Virus record (IMG/VR): IMGVR_UViG_2859805564_000008
Strand: one strand, 5' to 3'
Length of the DNA: 53,551 nucleotides
DNA from: a virus
Lineage: Duplodnaviria; Heunggongvirae; Uroviricota; Caudoviricetes
Positions 6,100-17,837 of this stretch are shown one piece after another (the stretch's first letter is position 1; each line of letters opens with the position of its first letter). The position numbers and the translations under genes are program-made. A model generated the notes under the pieces. It did not search any database and was not told where the DNA came from. It was given only the letters and a program-made list of their open reading frames with translations.

Positions 6100-6111
6100 C
6101 ATAAATATTGA

Positions 6112-6786
6112 TTAGGCCTTTATTGTGTATCTTCTTGGTTTTCCCGAGAAAATCACTGTACCAATTATAGAGCAATTACCGTTAATCTTAATGTAAGGCT
6201 CAGGCCAGTTTGGGTTTAATGCTTTGAGATAACGCTGTGTTCCATCTTCTATCAATCGCTTGAAGGTGGTTTCGCCTGTATCGTGCATCAATGCAATAAC
6301 GTCGTCACCGTGGCAGGCAGGGACTTCGGGATCAACAAAAATCATGTCTCCAGGGCGGTACTCATCAATCATTGAATCACCAATCACCCGCAAGATATAA
6401 GTCATTTCGCCACAGGGTACAGGGCAGGGATACGTTTCTGCTGTGCTCAAATCAACCTCAGAATAGCCAACTTCTTTCCATGCTCCGGCCTGTACCCATG
6501 ATATGACAGGGACTAACGTTATTTGTTTGTTAGTGATTGAAACATCAGGTTTTTTTGTGATGTTCGTTGTCTGGTGTTCTTGATCAAGCCATCCGACAGG
6601 CAGGTCGAAACATTTTTCGATGTGCCGTGCCATGCTGTCACCGATATTTTTAGTAGCGCCATCCCCCATAAACCTGCTGGTTTGGGTTGGCTCGCGATCA
6701 ATCATGGTGGCAAAGGATGAATTTCCGCCAACACCATCTCTCAGTTTTCTGGCGTTAGACCGCCGGATGTCATGGATTGTTTTCAT
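6112..6786 (-). CDS. cI: CI-type prophage repressor (HTH plus S24 LexA-like peptidase domain)
   Basis: 224 aa; C-terminal GDSM...PGD...KR autocleavage-domain pattern; divergent from cro. Confidence 0.8.
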   Translation of the reverse strand: MKTIHDIRRSNARKLRDGVGGNSSFATMIDREPTQTSRFMGDGATKNIGDSMARHIEKCFDLPVGWLDQEHQTTNITKKPDVSITNKQITLVPVISWVQAGAWKEVGYSEVDLSTAETYPCPVPCGEMTYILRVIGDSMIDEYRPGDMIFVDPEVPACHGDDVIALMHDTGETTFKRLIEDGTQRYLKALNPNWPEPYIKINGNCSIIGTVIFSGKPRRYTIKA

Positions 6787-6803
6787 AACGAAATTAAAAC
6801 CTT

Positions 6804-11990: not shown

Positions 11991-12356
11991 GTGATGCGTG
12001 ATATTCAGATGGTTCTGGATCGTTGGGGAGCATGGGCGGCGAGTGATAGTTCAGGAGTAGATTATTCTCCTATAGCTGCTGGGTTTAAAGGGCTTCTTCC
12101 CTATACAAGCAAAACACGTCAGGCTTGTTCAGATAGTGATGCATTAATTATTGAAGGTTGTCTTGCACGTCTAAAGCAAAAAAGACCTGATGAGCATTCG
12201 CTTCTTGTGGCACATTATTTATACAGAATATCCAAGCGTAAGATTGCAAAGGCGCGTGGAAAGGATGAGAAACTAATACGCATTGAGATACAGATGGCTG
12301 AGGGGTTTATTGATGGATGCCTTTCAATTCTGGATATTAAACTTGAAATGGATTAG
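11991..12356 (+). CDS. late-gene antiterminator Q-like protein
   Basis: 121-aa ORF at the end of the nin region, just upstream of the late promoter/terminator region. Confidence 0.55.
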   Translation: MMRDIQMVLDRWGAWAASDSSGVDYSPIAAGFKGLLPYTSKTRQACSDSDALIIEGCLARLKQKRPDEHSLLVAHYLYRISKRKIAKARGKDEKLIRIEIQMAEGFIDGCLSILDIKLEMD

Positions 12357-12361
12357 TGAAA

Positions 12362-12379
12362 CCCCGGCTTAAGCCGGGG
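12362..12379. terminator. palindromic hairpin between convergent Q and NYN genes
   Basis: CCCCGGCTT-AAGCCGGGG perfect dyad overlapping the NYN stop codon; weak U-tracts. Confidence 0.4.
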
Positions 12380-13232
12380 ATGTTTCAGATTGAAGTGTTT
12401 TTTTCTTGGGCTCGTTCTTAGATGATTTTGTTTTCTTTTGACGATTGAGTTTTTTCTCTTTGCGTCTGTCAATATAATCGTCCCACCAATCAGGTTTTAC
12501 TGTTGGGACGATTCTGCAAATATCAGCAATTGCAACAACAATGTTGCTCGATTGCACTCCATCGACGTGCTCTGCCAGTGAGGGAGGAACTTGTTGGTTC
12601 ATTGGATCGAGGATAAAATCCACACCCTTTATACGGGCATGTTTAGCGGCAGGAACGAAATCAGCATCGCCAGCAATCAGGACGATCACATCAACTAGTT
12701 TCTCATGAGCAAGGATAGTTATATCCATACCAAGCTTAATATCGACGGCTTTTTGTTTATATTCGTAGTAGAAATCGTCGTTAGTTAACTCAGACCATTG
12801 AATTTCATTACGTAATAGTTTCTTAAGAGTATGTTCTTTTATTTGCCAGTTACCGACGTTTGAAAGAATACCCATACGAAGTGCCGTTTTACGATTCTTC
12901 CTTAGCTCCTCATGAAGCTTGTTTCGTAAAACATTCGGAGCATGTGTCTTGAAGTTTTTAGTTGATGGGGTTTTGTTGTCTCCATCAGGCAAAGGATACT
13001 TAATCTGTTTATCAAGCGGCGGGCAGTCGTAATAGTAAATACGGTAAAGCTCAAGTGGTTCACGGTCAGCGTGAGCACCATGTGGAACCTCTACATGAAA
13101 TTTAACAATTCGCCAGATTATTTTAACAAGTTGTTGGCTGTCTAACTCATGCCCAGGGAAATGTTTTCGTAGAAAGTAATCAATCCGACGGATGAAGTAG
13201 CCGCCGTCAATCAAGACTGCTGTTTTCTTCAT
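12369..13232 (-). CDS. NYN-domain (PIN-like/LabA-like) putative ribonuclease with Lys-rich C-terminal tail
   Basis: MKKTAVLIDGGYF ... VLIAGDADFVP acidic-residue pattern of NYN domains; C-terminal KKLNRQKKTKSSKNEPKKK; ATG at 13232, track GTG at 13244. Confidence 0.65.
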   Translation of the reverse strand: MKKTAVLIDGGYFIRRIDYFLRKHFPGHELDSQQLVKIIWRIVKFHVEVPHGAHADREPLELYRIYYYDCPPLDKQIKYPLPDGDNKTPSTKNFKTHAPNVLRNKLHEELRKNRKTALRMGILSNVGNWQIKEHTLKKLLRNEIQWSELTNDDFYYEYKQKAVDIKLGMDITILAHEKLVDVIVLIAGDADFVPAAKHARIKGVDFILDPMNQQVPPSLAEHVDGVQSSNIVVAIADICRIVPTVKPDWWDDYIDRRKEKKLNRQKKTKSSKNEPKKKTLQSETSPA

Positions 13233-13244
13233 TGAAAAACTCAC

Positions 13245-13345: not shown

Positions 13346-13430
13346 ATTTTGCACTGTTTAAATGTAAATTTTTTCTGCTGTCAACATATAGTGTCATCTT
13401 TGGTATGTTGACACTATATAAACGCTTACG
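13320..13430 (+). promoter_or_regulatory. candidate late promoter region (pR'-like) with repeated TTGACA/TGTCAA motifs
   Basis: Several TTGACA/TGTCAACA motifs and an A/T-rich -10-like TATATAAA between Q and the tR'-like terminator; exact promoter not resolved. Confidence 0.3.
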
Positions 13431-13485
13431 CGGTCCGCAAAAATAATTGTATCATGTTAAGAGTGGTTACTTCGACTCCTTCCTT

Positions 13486-13510
13486 AAAACCGCAGTTGAG
13501 CGGTTTTTTT
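13486..13510 (+). terminator. tR'-like intrinsic terminator
   Basis: AAAACCGC-AGTTGA-GCGGTTTTTTT hairpin with U-run. Confidence 0.65.
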
Positions 13511-13608
13511 GTACCTGTAAACCTGGTGCAGTACAGTAAACACGCTGGTGGTCGTGAATACTGGCTTTTTATCTTGCTGGCTTTTTAGACAAGAGTTATT
13601 GGTATGTC

Positions 13609-13827
13609 ATGTTAACCAGAAGGAAAAAAGACATGCTAAAACAGCAAGATATGACAGAAACGGCGAAAGTTGTTTTTAATGAATTAAGCATCGAACCGGC
13701 AACAGTCGGGGAGATTGCACAAAACACATATCTTTCACGCGAACGCTGTCAGTTAATACTGACCCAGTTGGTTATGGCGGGGCTGGCAGATTACCAGTTC
13801 GGCTGTTACAGACGCCTTCAGCAATGA
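13609..13827 (+). CDS. small hypothetical protein (possible winged-helix regulator)
   Basis: 72-aa ORF between the tR'-like terminator and the methyltransferase gene. Confidence 0.35.
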   Translation: MLTRRKKDMLKQQDMTETAKVVFNELSIEPATVGEIAQNTYLSRERCQLILTQLVMAGLADYQFGCYRRLQQ

Positions 13828-13976
13828 AGGACTTTTAATTTGTGAAAATGGGCGGCTGGTGGGTGTTGGTAGCACCTGCCAGCCATTCGCTCATGCTTAC
13901 TGGTCACAAGCGAACCACGGCCCACTGCTTTAGCGCAAAAGCAGAGTGAGCCTACCAGAGTTACGCTTACTGATCC

Positions 13977-15029
13977 ATGAAAAATACTGTAAAAATAAAC
14001 AGTGTTGATTTAATCAACGCTGATTGCCTGCATTTTATTCAGTCCCTGCCTGATGATTCCATTGACCTGATTGTTACCGATCCGCCTTACTTCAAGGTGA
14101 AACCTAACGGTTGGGACAATCAGTGGAAAGGGGACGAAGATTACCTTAAGTGGCTGGACCACTGTCTGGCCCAGTTCTGGCGGGTGTTAAAACCTGCCGG
14201 AAGCCTTTACCTGTTCTGTGGGCATCGCCTGGCATCTGATATTGAGATCATGATGCGTGAACGTTTCAACGTGCTTAACCATATCATCTGGGCGAAGCCG
14301 TCCGGACGTTGGAATGGGTGTAATAAAGAAAGTCTGCGCGCATATTTTCCTGCCACAGAGCGCGTTCTGTTTGCTGAACATTACCAGGGGCCATATCGCG
14401 GCAAAAGTGACGGCTATGCGGCAAAAGAAAGGGAACTCAAACAGCACATAATGGCACCGCTGATATCGTATTTCAGGGATGCTCGTGCCGAAATGGGTAT
14501 AACGGCAAAACAAATTGCCGAAGCCACAGGTAAGAAAAATATGGTTTCCCACTGGTTTGGTGCCAGTCAGTGGCAGTTGCCGAATGAGGCTGACTATCGG
14601 AAGTTACAGGCACTGTTTTCCCGTATAGCGGCAGAGAAGTTTCAGGAACAACAACTGGAACAACCACACCACCAGCTGGTGGCATCTTATGATTCACTGA
14701 ATCGCAAATATTCTGAATTGCTGGATGAGTTTAAATCTCTCCGGCGCTATTTCTCCGTATCAGTCTCCGTGCCTTATACCGATGTCTGGACGCATAAGCC
14801 CGTTCAGTTCTACCCGGGTAAACATCCGTGCGAGAAACCGGCGGATATGCTCCGGCAAATAATCAATGCCAGTAGTCGACCTGGTGATCTGGTTGCTGAT
14901 TTCTTTATGGGATCCGGTTCCACAATAAAAGCAGCAATGGCGCTGGGGCGTCGGGCGTTAGGTGTTGAACTTGAGTCAGAGCGGTTTAATCAGACGGTGA
15001 AAGAGGTAAGTGAACTGGTGGGGAAATAA
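13977..15029 (+). CDS. orphan DNA methyltransferase (beta-class, N6-adenine or N4-cytosine)
   Basis: DPPY catalytic motif (LIVTDPPYF) N-terminal and FxGxG SAM-binding motif (FFMGSGST) C-terminal; no adjacent nuclease gene. Confidence 0.8.
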   Translation: MKNTVKINSVDLINADCLHFIQSLPDDSIDLIVTDPPYFKVKPNGWDNQWKGDEDYLKWLDHCLAQFWRVLKPAGSLYLFCGHRLASDIEIMMRERFNVLNHIIWAKPSGRWNGCNKESLRAYFPATERVLFAEHYQGPYRGKSDGYAAKERELKQHIMAPLISYFRDARAEMGITAKQIAEATGKKNMVSHWFGASQWQLPNEADYRKLQALFSRIAAEKFQEQQLEQPHHQLVASYDSLNRKYSELLDEFKSLRRYFSVSVSVPYTDVWTHKPVQFYPGKHPCEKPADMLRQIINASSRPGDLVADFFMGSGSTIKAAMALGRRALGVELESERFNQTVKEVSELVGK

Positions 15030-15105
15030 TTCTGGTGGCCACGTTGCGTGGCCTTTTTATTTCCAACACAGCACCCGCAAATATCGCGAGGTGAGAGATG
15101 ACGAA

Positions 15106-15432
15106 ATGCCTCATAACCCAAATACCTGGCTGGACTTGGTCCAGAGCTGGTGGCGTGGAGACACACCGCTGGGTGCAGTGATTATGTCGATCGTTATGGC
15201 TGGTTTGCGCATCGCCTATTTTGGCGGTGGTGGTGGCTGGAAGCGAAAAACGCTCGAGATTTTGCTATGTGGCGCTCTGACGCTGACCTTTGCATCCGCT
15301 CTTGAGTATGTCGGATGGCCTAAATCACTTTCTGTTGCCATTGGTGGTGGGGTGGGGCTGATCGGTGTCGATGCTATTCGTGGGGCTGCAATGCGAGTAA
15401 TCGGTAACAAATTTGGTGGCTCTAAGGAGTAA
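15106..15432 (+). CDS. holin (putative)
   Basis: ~108-aa protein with 2-3 predicted TM segments and charged C-terminus, immediately upstream of the endolysin. Confidence 0.6.
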   Translation: MPHNPNTWLDLVQSWWRGDTPLGAVIMSIVMAGLRIAYFGGGGGWKRKTLEILLCGALTLTFASALEYVGWPKSLSVAIGGGVGLIGVDAIRGAAMRVIGNKFGGSKE

Positions 15433-16401: not shown

Positions 16402-16695
16402 TTATTGTGAGCAATACACCCGTGCTTCCAGCGGAGTATAAATGCCTAAAGTAATAAAACCGAGCAATCCATTTACGAATGTTTGCTGGGTTTCTGTTTT
16501 AACCACATTTTCTGCGCCGCCACAAATTTTGGCTGCATCAACAGTTTTCTCCTGTCCAATTCCCGAAACGAAGAAATGATGGGTGATGGTTTCCTTTGGT
16601 GTTACTGCTGTCGGTTTGTTTCCAACAGTAAACGTCTGTTGAGCACATCCTGTAATAAGCATTGCCAGAGCGGCAGAAAATAACATTTTTTTCAT
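16402..16695 (-). CDS. bor: Bor lipoprotein (serum-resistance-associated)
   Basis: MKKMLFSAALAMLITGCAQQ lipobox; lambda Bor-like; track ORF extends to 16743. Confidence 0.85.
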   Translation of the reverse strand: MKKMLFSAALAMLITGCAQQTFTVGNKPTAVTPKETITHHFFVSGIGQEKTVDAAKICGGAENVVKTETQQTFVNGLLGFITLGIYTPLEARVYCSQ

Positions 16696-17010
16696 CTTAT
16701 TATCCTGCATTGTTAAAAACGGCAGAATCCTATGTGACAACAATTAAACGATAGTTAAATGGATTGATGAAAATTAAAACTATATAGGTGTACGGTCAGA
16801 CTATTGGAGGTAGTCAGGATTTGAATGTCAGTCTGTTGTCGGCATTCTGGCAATGCAATTTGGATAAAGCGGGGATTAAAAAGATAGAGGCGAGCCGGTC
16901 AGGTAGAAATGAATCAGGCTCAAAGTGAAGCGGAAAAGGTCTGTGGCACAAACTGATGCTGCCATAATTACAGCCTGATGACTTGTGGAATGAAACATGT
17001 TGAACCTCCT

Positions 17011-17562
17011 TAATTGATGTGATTCGAGTGAGGAAGGCATTCTGTCCTTCTATAGTGTCCAGTAAATCAAACAGGAAGCTTGTCTCACGTGTGAGACAAG
17101 CCTCTCCATTAGCGAGTTGTATTGATTACAACTCTTCAAAGAGTTCATTACTGGGTAGATGAAAATAGTTTCACGACGAATGGAGGAGACTATGTCGGTG
17201 GCTTCTTCATTGGAGTACATATGCTCCCTCGAACCTCAAAAGCATGCCGAGTTCGCGGCTGCCGCCATACCACGACTGACCCGTGTTGAAGCTCCGTAAT
17301 TGATGTTATTCGAGTGAGGAAGGCATTCTGCCCCCCTATACTGTCCAGTAAATCAAACAGGAAACTTGCCTTACGCGTGAGACAAGCCTCTCCCATCAGT
17401 GAGTTGTATTGATCTCGACTCTTCAAAGAATTCATTACTGGGTAGATGAAAATAGTTTCACGATGAATGGAGGAGGCTATGTTGGTGGCTTCTTCATTGG
17501 AGTACATATGCCCCCACGAACCCCAAAAACCTGCCGTGTTCGCGGCTACCGCAATACCACCA
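17011..17562. repeat. tandem duplication of a ~286-bp unit
   Basis: Two ~90% identical direct copies (start ~17011 and ~17297), each with a GTCTCACGTGTGAGAC-type palindrome and a GGAGGAG-ATG small-ORF start. Confidence 0.8.
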
Positions 17563-17837
17563 CAGATCCGTCAGGCTATTGCAAAAGCCACAAAAGCGAA
17601 GGCTGGAAGCAATACAAGCCGGGCCAGTCCTGTCATCAGCGCGGTTATGGTTCGCGGGGTTGTCCCTCATGCTCGCCAGTCCTGTGCGGGGGTGGAAGAA
17701 ACAGGACACTCACACAGATTCTTGTGGGTCGATGCTATTCCTTTCTGGATTATCCCGATGCCATTCATGCAAGGCGCTGTATCAGACGTTCGTCATGGCT
17801 GTCAGGCTGACGGGTCCTCCCGGTGGGGTGGTCTGCC

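Follow-up and report, generated by a model that had tools for sequence, protein, structure and literature searches.

How does a temperate phage carry the gene for a DNA methyltransferase whose close relatives make cells sick when they are expressed constitutively? The question is raised by a 53,551-nucleotide (nt) stretch of Caudoviricetes DNA (IMG/VR record IMGVR_UViG_2859805564_000008; hereafter the window), which is a lambdoid prophage integrated at tRNA-Thr (thrW) and adjoining proA. An earlier prediction (the original prediction), made by a model from the DNA letters, had picked out two open reading frames (ORFs) in it at the head of the late operon: a 350-amino-acid (aa) methyltransferase and, upstream of it, a small ORF. 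Here we report that the methylase belongs to the M.EcoGII family, complete in length and with its motifs intact, and that its gene is preceded by a covariation-supported structured RNA leader that is exclusive to the front of M.EcoGII-family methylase genes. We consider it likely that the cassette is a modification module of the prophage, in which a non-specific late methylase is gated by the antiterminator Q, controlled through its leader and employed against restriction.

The methylase ORF (13977-15029, + strand) gave a single Pfam match, to N6_N4_Mtase (PF01555), which scored 146.9 bits (cut-off 26.7; E=1.1e-42) and covered residues 29-341 and profile positions 1-220 of 221. The DPPY motif lies at residues 35-38 and F-M-G-S-G at residues 310-314, giving the beta order of DPPY, target-recognition domain (TRD) and FxGxG. 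An alignment of ten relatives showed DPPY, FxGxG, GKHPCEKP and the TRD signature HWF..SQWQLP to be invariant, and the S-adenosylmethionine (SAM)-binding and catalytic motifs to be intact. Dam, the alpha-class GATC methylase, was rejected as an identity on account of the beta motif order and the sole Pfam match. About 125 residues (135-260) part the two halves of the catalytic domain, and the nearest solved structures, the beta-class enzymes M.RsrI, M.MboIIA and CcrM, were matched over these two halves alone. We therefore read the central segment, earlier described as an insertion of ~100 aa, as the normal TRD of the family.

The methylase is ~81% identical to M.EcoGII over 349 aa (76% within the TRD, residues 160-237) and ~89% identical to the reconstructed ancestor Anc291; these identities are approximate, since both reference sequences come from machine-read text (that of M.EcoGII, from the supplement of the SUPREM paper, with small errors). 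A comparison with the enzyme of phage 1720a-02, made as a cross-check, gave 81.1% identity. Murray et al. named the phage 1720a-02 methylase as very similar to M.EcoGII (PMC5778455). The window protein, which is basic (isoelectric point, pI, 8.6), is 98.9% identical to SfV orf48 and is found also in phages cdtI, mEp460, Ayreon, P27 and many Stx2a/Stx2c phages. It is thus near-identical to public records and is not new.

No restriction endonuclease gene was found beside the methylase, its neighbours being Q, a reverse-strand NYN gene, a DUF968/HNH gene, the winged-helix ORF described below and the holin gene. A PADLOC scan matched methyltransferase models alone (MTase_II, E=2e-152) and found no adjoining cognate nuclease of the kind that marks a Type II restriction-modification system. 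The original prediction of an orphan beta-class methyltransferase with DPPY and FxGxG motifs, placed between the tR'-like terminator and the holin gene, is therefore borne out by Pfam, motifs and neighbours.

What does such an enzyme modify? M.EcoGII methylates adenine without sequence specificity, and alone modifies up to 99% of DNA adenines (PMC5778455). Anc291 is active and non-specific (PMC11551740). Two further relatives, Serratia PhiOS31_p25 and Aeromonas PhiARM81ld_p56, were assayed and found to be non-specific or extremely relaxed (PMC7556043); the window methylase is 64% identical to the first and 53% to the second. Because the tested members that bracket the window protein on both sides share this property, N6-adenine methylation in essentially any sequence context is the best-supported expectation for it. 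A sequence-specific orphan methylase, Dam-like or reading another short motif and either protecting against one or a few restriction systems or serving a regulatory role, appears highly improbable. A TRD this large usually goes with site specificity in beta-class enzymes (M.RsrI, M.MboIIA, CcrM), ~24% of TRD residues differ from M.EcoGII, and relatives are publicly annotated as 'DNA adenine methylase', but every tested clade member, at 53-89% identity, is non-specific, the HWF..SQWQLP signature is invariant in the family, and the motif order is beta, not Dam's alpha. A discrete modified motif had been anticipated; given the non-specific relatives, we would expect methylation in all contexts, and because the family is sequence-non-specific, absence of a new motif would not speak against activity.

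We then turned to the DNA in front of the methylase gene. A spacer of 149 nt parts it from the small ORF, and contains a conserved leader of ~145 nt (13834-13976). Alignment of the 175 nt preceding the methylase in 80 genomes showed the leader to be as conserved as coding sequence, and it is kept even at loci without the small ORF. It precedes the methylase in N15, PY54, Serratia OS31 and VHML, and in Aeromonas phiARM81ld it lies ahead of an ORF resembling Com of phage Mu, so that it ranges from E. coli to Vibrio and Aeromonas phages. The diversity of loci came from scans seeded with VHML and PY54 proteins; a protein-alignment scan of viral contigs gave near-identical loci only. The window leader folds with a minimum free energy (MFE) of -57 kcal/mol (z=-3.0). 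Because a plain MAFFT alignment put the variable P1 hairpins out of register, RNAalifold derived a poor consensus from it and was replaced by a structure of five helices defined by hand from the window sequence, a covariance model built from 32 diverse sequences, and pair counting. The elements of the leader are as follows.

13849-13853 / 13920-13924, + strand: closing helix UGGGC/GCCCA, surrounding P1 and P2
13854-13867 / 13871-13884, + strand: helix P1
13886-13895 / 13905-13914, + strand: helix P2
13925-13931 / 13938-13944, + strand: helix P3, 3' of the closing helix
13946-13951 / 13965-13970, + strand: helix P4, 3' of the closing helix
13948-13957, + strand: nearly invariant GAGCCUAYCA

The covariance model recognised one site in the window (13834-13991, E=1e-43). 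Among 100 non-redundant loci it had a match in 79, each in the sense orientation and immediately 5' of the methylase gene or of its Com-like companion. In the 79-sequence alignment, 82% of cells were paired, versus 30-44% when the partners were slid by 1-3 columns, and 34 of the 40 pairs had changed on both sides. We counted 303 compensatory cells against 98+-8 in 500 shuffles, none of which reached the observed value; this test is shuffle-based and not phylogeny-aware, and the counts, coming from a model-fitted alignment, are somewhat inflated. The P1 hairpins differ visibly in sequence between lineages yet stay perfectly complementary. G-U pairs, which would be A-C on the other strand, are frequent, and the structure therefore belongs to the sense strand. 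Single-sequence MFE folds alternate, placing AUGGG with the P2 5' strand, GCCCA or GCCUA; the closed three-way junction is supported by the covariation of P2. The unpaired junction and loop nucleotides are nearly invariant (GUGAAAUGGGCG, AAGGCCCA and GAGCCUAYCA). In leaders of the E. coli type the loops of P1 (UGGUAG) and P4 (CUACCA) could pair with each other; the PY54-like sequences do not fit such a pairing. A conserved GATC just before the start codon was rejected as a family feature, being missing from PY54-like leaders.

To which genes does this RNA belong? A gene-independent pattern search of IMG/VR with three conserved RNA anchors returned 121 matches, and in 118 of them an M.EcoGII-family methylase began no more than 60 nt further on; the remaining three were evident chance matches without the hairpins. 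As all 118 true copies lie upstream of a methylase, the leader belongs to the M.EcoGII-type methylase family and not to late operons generally. At Xenorhabdus and Photorhabdus loci the spacer is shorter and the model finds no leader. Rfam 15 gave no match at E<=1 over 13834-13976, nor in the equivalent region of six diverse loci.

The same data bear on whether the spacer is an RNA element at all. That it is instead a short stretch of protein-coding sequence coupled to the methylase, or acts at the DNA level (as a promoter or a site of recombination, for instance), could be proposed from the ATGA stop/start overlap at 13977-13980, from a ~40-codon open frame that ends there in some relatives, and from the high conservation of the spacer DNA at a mosaic junction. 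In the window, however, the last 35 codons of that frame lack a start codon and include two stop codons, and the helices are kept by compensatory changes that include many G-U pairs. On the sense strand of the spacer there are stop codons in all three frames, and the longest open stretch, which ends at the ATGA overlap, has no start codon. A consensus scan found no promoter-like site in the spacer. On these grounds a leader peptide that ends at the overlap and couples translation to the methylase was rejected, and the proposal as a whole is largely refuted and scarcely credible.

The methylase ATG itself lacks a Shine-Dalgarno sequence (GCUUACUGAUCCAUG), and relatives offer a clue to what may act at this position. 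Com-like zinc-finger ORFs of 36-71 aa (ELRCxxCxxKLC...KCxRCK) lie between the leader and the methylase in Vibrio/Aeromonas phage contigs (loci L174-L188 and L005), most of them unannotated. They are found ~130-200 nt upstream of the methylase, with start positions that fall within the 3' end of the leader motif. These ORFs belong to phrog_6417, 'translational regulator', and occur only in the Vibrio and Aeromonas relatives. That a Com-like ORF sits in this slot supports translational gating there.

The leader therefore stands, in the window and its relatives, as a covariation-supported structured RNA in front of a gene whose product is probably toxic, and it probably keeps that methylase under control. 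We tentatively raise a stronger reading, which we hold as possible and somewhat short of even: that it represents a new cis-regulatory RNA class for the non-specific adenine methyltransferase genes of temperate phages, a three-way-junction sensor that would switch translation through the phrog_331 protein (the product of the small ORF), the methylase itself, or SAM/S-adenosylhomocysteine, and so tune the late dose. The methylase may instead regulate its own expression, the leader may bind a small molecule, or it may do no more than stabilise the mRNA.

In the late region the order on the + strand is Q, tR'-like terminator, second hairpin, small ORF, spacer, methylase, terminator, holin S, endolysin and Rz/Rz1, with the NYN gene on the - strand following Q. 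The features are listed below.

11991-12356, + strand: Q antiterminator gene (Pfam PF06530 Phage_antitermQ, E=1.1e-51; RefSeq annotation)
about 13486-13511, + strand: tR'-like intrinsic terminator, AAAACCGC-loop-GCGGTTTT with a T run (sequence reading; the equivalent SfV site is annotated as a rho-independent terminator)
13544-13575, + strand: second terminator-like hairpin with a T run (consensus scan alone)
13633-13827, + strand: gene of the 64-aa winged-helix protein (phrog_331, SfV orf47); a 72-aa version starts at 13609
13815-13840, + strand: terminator-like hairpin, then a U-rich stretch (consensus scan), overlapping the small-ORF stop codon and directly 5' of the leader
13834-13976, + strand: structured RNA leader of the methylase gene (covariance model, covariation, folding)
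13977-15029, + strand: gene of the M.EcoGII-family beta-class N6-adenine methyltransferase of DNA (and RNA), 350 aa (Pfam, identity to the family, motifs)
15037-15063 (hairpin 15037-15053), + strand: intrinsic terminator GGCCACGTTGCGTGGCC with a T run in the methylase/holin gap (consensus scan; annotated in SfV, N15 and Ayreon)
15106-15432, + strand: gene of holin S, start of the lysis cassette S-R-Rz/Rz1 (Pfam Phage_holin_3_1, E=4.5e-25; RefSeq start)

The location after Q and tR' and before holin S agrees with the original placement of the methylase at the head of the late operon, and puts the gene first in the Q-dependent transcript. The original inventory of the region, correct in the two ORFs, had overlooked the conserved RNA leader, the terminators on either side and the missing ribosome-binding site of the methylase. 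Homology with SfV begins at window position 13484, so that the shared module starts at the tR'-like terminator, and the hairpin at 13815-13840 is kept in relatives through changes that, judged by eye, appear compensatory. The order of antiterminator or late promoter, terminator, methylase, terminator and holin is common to SfV, N15, PY54, Serratia OS31, VHML and Morganella/Hafnia/Aeromonas phages. A stretch identical to the window is present in E. coli A0 34/86 and other strains, and the cassette region was matched in 1604 of 5426 complete E. coli genomes.

In lambdoid phages the late promoter PR' normally lies directly after Q. A consensus scan gave no sense-strand site for PR' in the window, and we leave the promoter without a confident position. 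A perfect 11-bp inverted repeat, ATATAGTGTCA-N12-TGACACTATAT, was noted at 13386-13396 / 13409-13419 (also 13370-13388 / 13404-13422), with TTGACA-like hexamers; it sits where PR' and a Q-binding element, or an operator of the NYN gene, would be expected.

Constitutive expression of an M.EcoGII-type enzyme makes cells sick, and M.EcoGI and M.EcoGII are silent in the lysogen. This published toxicity and silence fit the position of the window methylase behind three terminator-like signals and before a fourth. The prophage location and the missing neighbour nuclease are observed directly; silence of this copy in the lysogen is suggested by the flanking terminators together with the M.EcoGI/M.EcoGII data.

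Does the small protein take part in this control? The upstream ORF at 13609-13827 (+ strand) exists as originally described, with 72 aa. In a comparison with 120 database homologues, conservation begins at the second methionine (MLKQQDMTE onward) and is missing ahead of it. The ATG at 13633 is preceded 8 nt upstream by an AAGGA Shine-Dalgarno sequence (13620-13624) and is the start used by RefSeq and SfV. From the conserved start, the Shine-Dalgarno sequence and the annotations, we therefore take the protein to be 64 aa long. AlphaFold2, with a 38-sequence alignment, predicted an H1-H2-H3-beta-hairpin winged helix at a pLDDT (predicted local distance difference test) of 89.8. Foldseek with this model returned winged-helix domains only, with template-modelling (TM) scores of up to 0.83 to IclR-type domains; the kinds found were IclR/MarR DNA-binding domains, SelB RNA-binding domains and dimerisation domains of small-molecule methyltransferases. 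We regard the fold as settled by this model to be a winged helix, for which DNA, RNA or protein binding are all candidate roles. The earlier proposal of a small DNA-binding regulator thus holds as regards a predicted fold of nucleic-acid-binding type, and is too narrow as regards the target, the protein being acidic (pI 5.1). It belongs to phrog_331 (unknown function; E=5.9e-35), which includes N15 gp51, and its Pfam matches to TrmB and DprA_WH are weak and below threshold. The zinc-finger pattern of the Mu Com type was not found in it.

The small gene lies upstream of the methylase at a fixed distance in 59 of 80 species-representative loci, and is missing from ~17 for which the full upstream sequence is at hand. 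The distance is mostly ~150 nt, and ~90-110 nt in Xenorhabdus and Photorhabdus. A hidden Markov model found the protein in 77/80, 66/80 and 24/80 loci of three phage-contig sets. Units of leader plus methylase that are 96-100% identical carry either an SfV-type or a cdtI-type allele of the small protein (~50% identical to each other), and the SfV-type allele is also paired with methylases of 81-83% identity. Across alleles the N-terminus and helix 3 (RCQL[I/L]LTQ..AGL) are invariant, and helix 2 and the wing vary. Neither this conserved association of methylase and phrog_331 nor the family-specific leader RNA was found described in the literature consulted, Rfam or annotations.

These facts argue for a conserved target of the small protein. 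They argue against an obligatory subunit of the methylase, because the gene is missing from many loci, swaps independently, and in N15 lies upstream of the late promoter. We therefore find it improbable that the two proteins form a two-subunit enzyme with an RNA (e.g. rRNA) substrate in which the small protein gives specificity. A precedent exists in M.EcoPA8orf6770P-PNB-2, a phage methylase that lacks specificity of its own and is guided by a winged-helix protein whose gene lies just ahead of it (PMC10810198), but this is an unrelated MT-A70 enzyme, and PNB-2 has no sequence similarity to the small protein. M.EcoGII and its relatives methylate RNA in vitro, yet M.EcoGII reaches its near-complete methylation of DNA adenines by itself. 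The acidic small protein facing a basic methylase, and the presence of methyltransferase dimerisation domains among the top structural matches, would suit a complex; at least one fifth of loci nonetheless lack the gene, alleles of 50% identity swap against a constant methylase, and the N15 gene lies in a different transcription unit.

Alternatively, the small protein could be a conventional DNA-binding transcription regulator and the spacer a merely stable 5' untranslated region that protects the mRNA and does not switch. We judge this rather unlikely, and less improbable than a two-subunit enzyme. The IclR and MarR DNA-binding domains (TM 0.8) are among its closest folds, as the weak TrmB and DprA_WH matches might also hint, helix 3, the usual recognition helix, is invariant, and neither an alternative structure nor a ligand pocket was demonstrable for the leader. 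On the other hand, no conserved operator-like repeat was found beside the small gene, and the protein is acidic; the near-invariant unpaired nucleotides of the leader exceed what a simple stabiliser needs, and the replacement by Com-like ORFs in relatives points to translational control.

We propose the following sequence of events for a Q-gated, leader-controlled cassette. With three terminator-like signals before the methylase and one after it, only Q-modified RNA polymerase should transcribe the gene, from PR' after induction and along with the lysis genes. Since the enzyme is harmful to the cell, it would be silent in the lysogen. Once made, it would partially hypermethylate replicating and packaged phage DNA, and progeny would then resist adenine-methylation-sensitive restriction in the next host. 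The leader would act in cis after transcription to set the amount of enzyme; such a dose limit is suggested by the toxicity of the enzyme and by the harm that very heavy methylation does to incoming DNA. The 64-aa winged-helix protein would be the most likely trans-acting partner, binding the leader or the enzyme, as Com does for mom. Together these steps would amount to a layered gating of a toxic enzyme.

Several points weigh against this picture. Specificity is read across from homologues of 53-89% identity with the TRD divergence given above, and the activity, methylome and expression of this copy are likewise those expected from its relatives. A plasmid heavily methylated by M.EcoGII transforms E. 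coli 10^4-10^5-fold worse, so that hypermethylation can be costly. The shielding of progeny DNA from restriction is an accepted view of the family that the literature consulted has assumed rather than directly demonstrated. For the leader, besides the inflation of the covariation counts, we could demonstrate neither a switch to an alternative structure nor a ligand, nor an occlusion of the start codon. The small gene is missing from ~20-25% of the loci that keep the leader, and it recombines independently of leader and methylase. In N15 the phrog_331 gene (gp51, locus L004 1506-1733) lies upstream of the annotated late promoter and terminator, not between terminator and leader. RNA binding by the small protein, which its acidity does not favour, is suggested by its fold and setting.

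How does the cassette compare with known systems? M.EcoGII (from the prophage of E. coli O104:H4 C227-11; Murray et al., 2018, PMC5778455), Anc291 and SUPREM (PMC11551740) are of the same family, length and architecture as the window methylase, with Rossmann halves at 1-134 and 260-349 and a four-helix-bundle TRD that holds a helix-turn-helix. Like M.EcoGII, the window enzyme is prophage-borne and orphan, and would be silent in lysogens and harmful when constitutive; it differs in being an allele of the SfV/cdtI/mEp460 type (98-99% identical to those), known here from sequence. The M.EcoGII publications describe neither an upstream winged-helix gene nor a structured leader.

Phage SfV (orf47-orf48, NC_003444) carries the same two genes between Q and S with the same annotated terminators, as do cdtI, mEp460, Ayreon, P27 and Stx2a/Stx2c phages. 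Its methylase is 98.9% and its small protein 100% identical to those of the window, whereas in the window Q is of a short, 121-aa type and is parted from PR' by a reverse-strand NYN gene; cdtI and mEp460 differ in carrying the other small-protein allele (~50% identity). PhiARM81ld_p56 and PhiOS31_p25 are homologous non-specific enzymes encoded directly before the holin gene behind the same leader motif. Neither phage has the winged-helix gene, and the Aeromonas phage has the Com-like ORF between leader and methylase.

The com-mom operon of Mu likewise places a late, toxic, broad-specificity adenine modification enzyme after a small regulator gene and a structured mRNA leader; there the small nucleic-acid-binding protein Com activates translation of mom. 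Unlike the enzyme described here, Mom is not a methyltransferase; the small protein of the window is a predicted winged helix and not a zinc finger, and no translation-inhibition hairpin over the start codon has been demonstrated in it. M.EcoPA8orf6770P-PNB-2, the two-subunit 16S rRNA methyltransferase of a Stx2a phage (PMC10810198), is also non-specific when alone and has a winged-helix protein encoded immediately upstream, but it is an MT-A70 enzyme of 208 aa from the early-left region that is reported to be constitutively expressed. We located the gp5/gp6 genes of this Koudelka rRNA methyltransferase through the published terminator sequence and rejected it as the identity of the cassette, BLASTP giving E=0.62 and 0.22 and no meaningful alignment; the likeness is one of analogy only.

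The two-gene cassette is already annotated in public records and the methylase finding itself is ordinary; the regulatory RNA is the added interest, which we rate as moderate. Chromatin and RNA footprinting make wide use of M.EcoGII as a reagent, and its relatives, Shiga-toxin phages included, match ~30% of complete E. coli genomes; we found no description of how phages control such a dangerous enzyme. Placement in this family corrects the expected experimental read-out, from a motif to all contexts. The architecture, with triple terminators, a family-specific leader, no ribosome-binding site and a winged-helix or Com-like companion, is testable. If the leader were a true switch, it would be a new phage regulatory RNA, could explain silence in methylome surveys, and would be usable to control the expression of non-specific methylases.

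A few observations lie outside this argument. The promoter-proximal short transcript regions of PY54 (L088 1287-1362) and Serratia OS31 (L089 1215-1276) gave sub-threshold matches to the Salmonella prophage small RNA isrK (E=0.86 and 0.037, respectively). The NYN-domain gene (PIN-like nuclease fold; 291 aa, 12369-13244, - strand), between Q and the late promoter/tR' region, matches phrog_5783 (unknown function), has faint PADLOC NYN/HEC-09 matches and is preceded by a promoter-like site at 13342-13313. The gene resembles a moron expressed in the lysogen and may serve in defence.

Directly after Rz/Rz1 lies a Bor/Iss-type lipoprotein gene (16402-16743, - strand; 'increased serum survival' in RefSeq), and Bor/Iss is a classic lysogenic-conversion virulence moron. 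Downstream of this bor/iss gene, a tandem duplication of ~287 bp at 16988-17571, in two copies that are 88-89% identical, yields paired look-alike ORFs on both strands and adjoins an HNH endonuclease gene that RefSeq marks as incomplete. The prophage also resembles the SfV-like 'NC-SV' prophage, the repressor region mapping (by RefSeq) to window positions ~6100-6800. The 3' end of the NC-SV repressor gene is the site of svsR, a small RNA reported to limit infection by other phages (PMC12803456).

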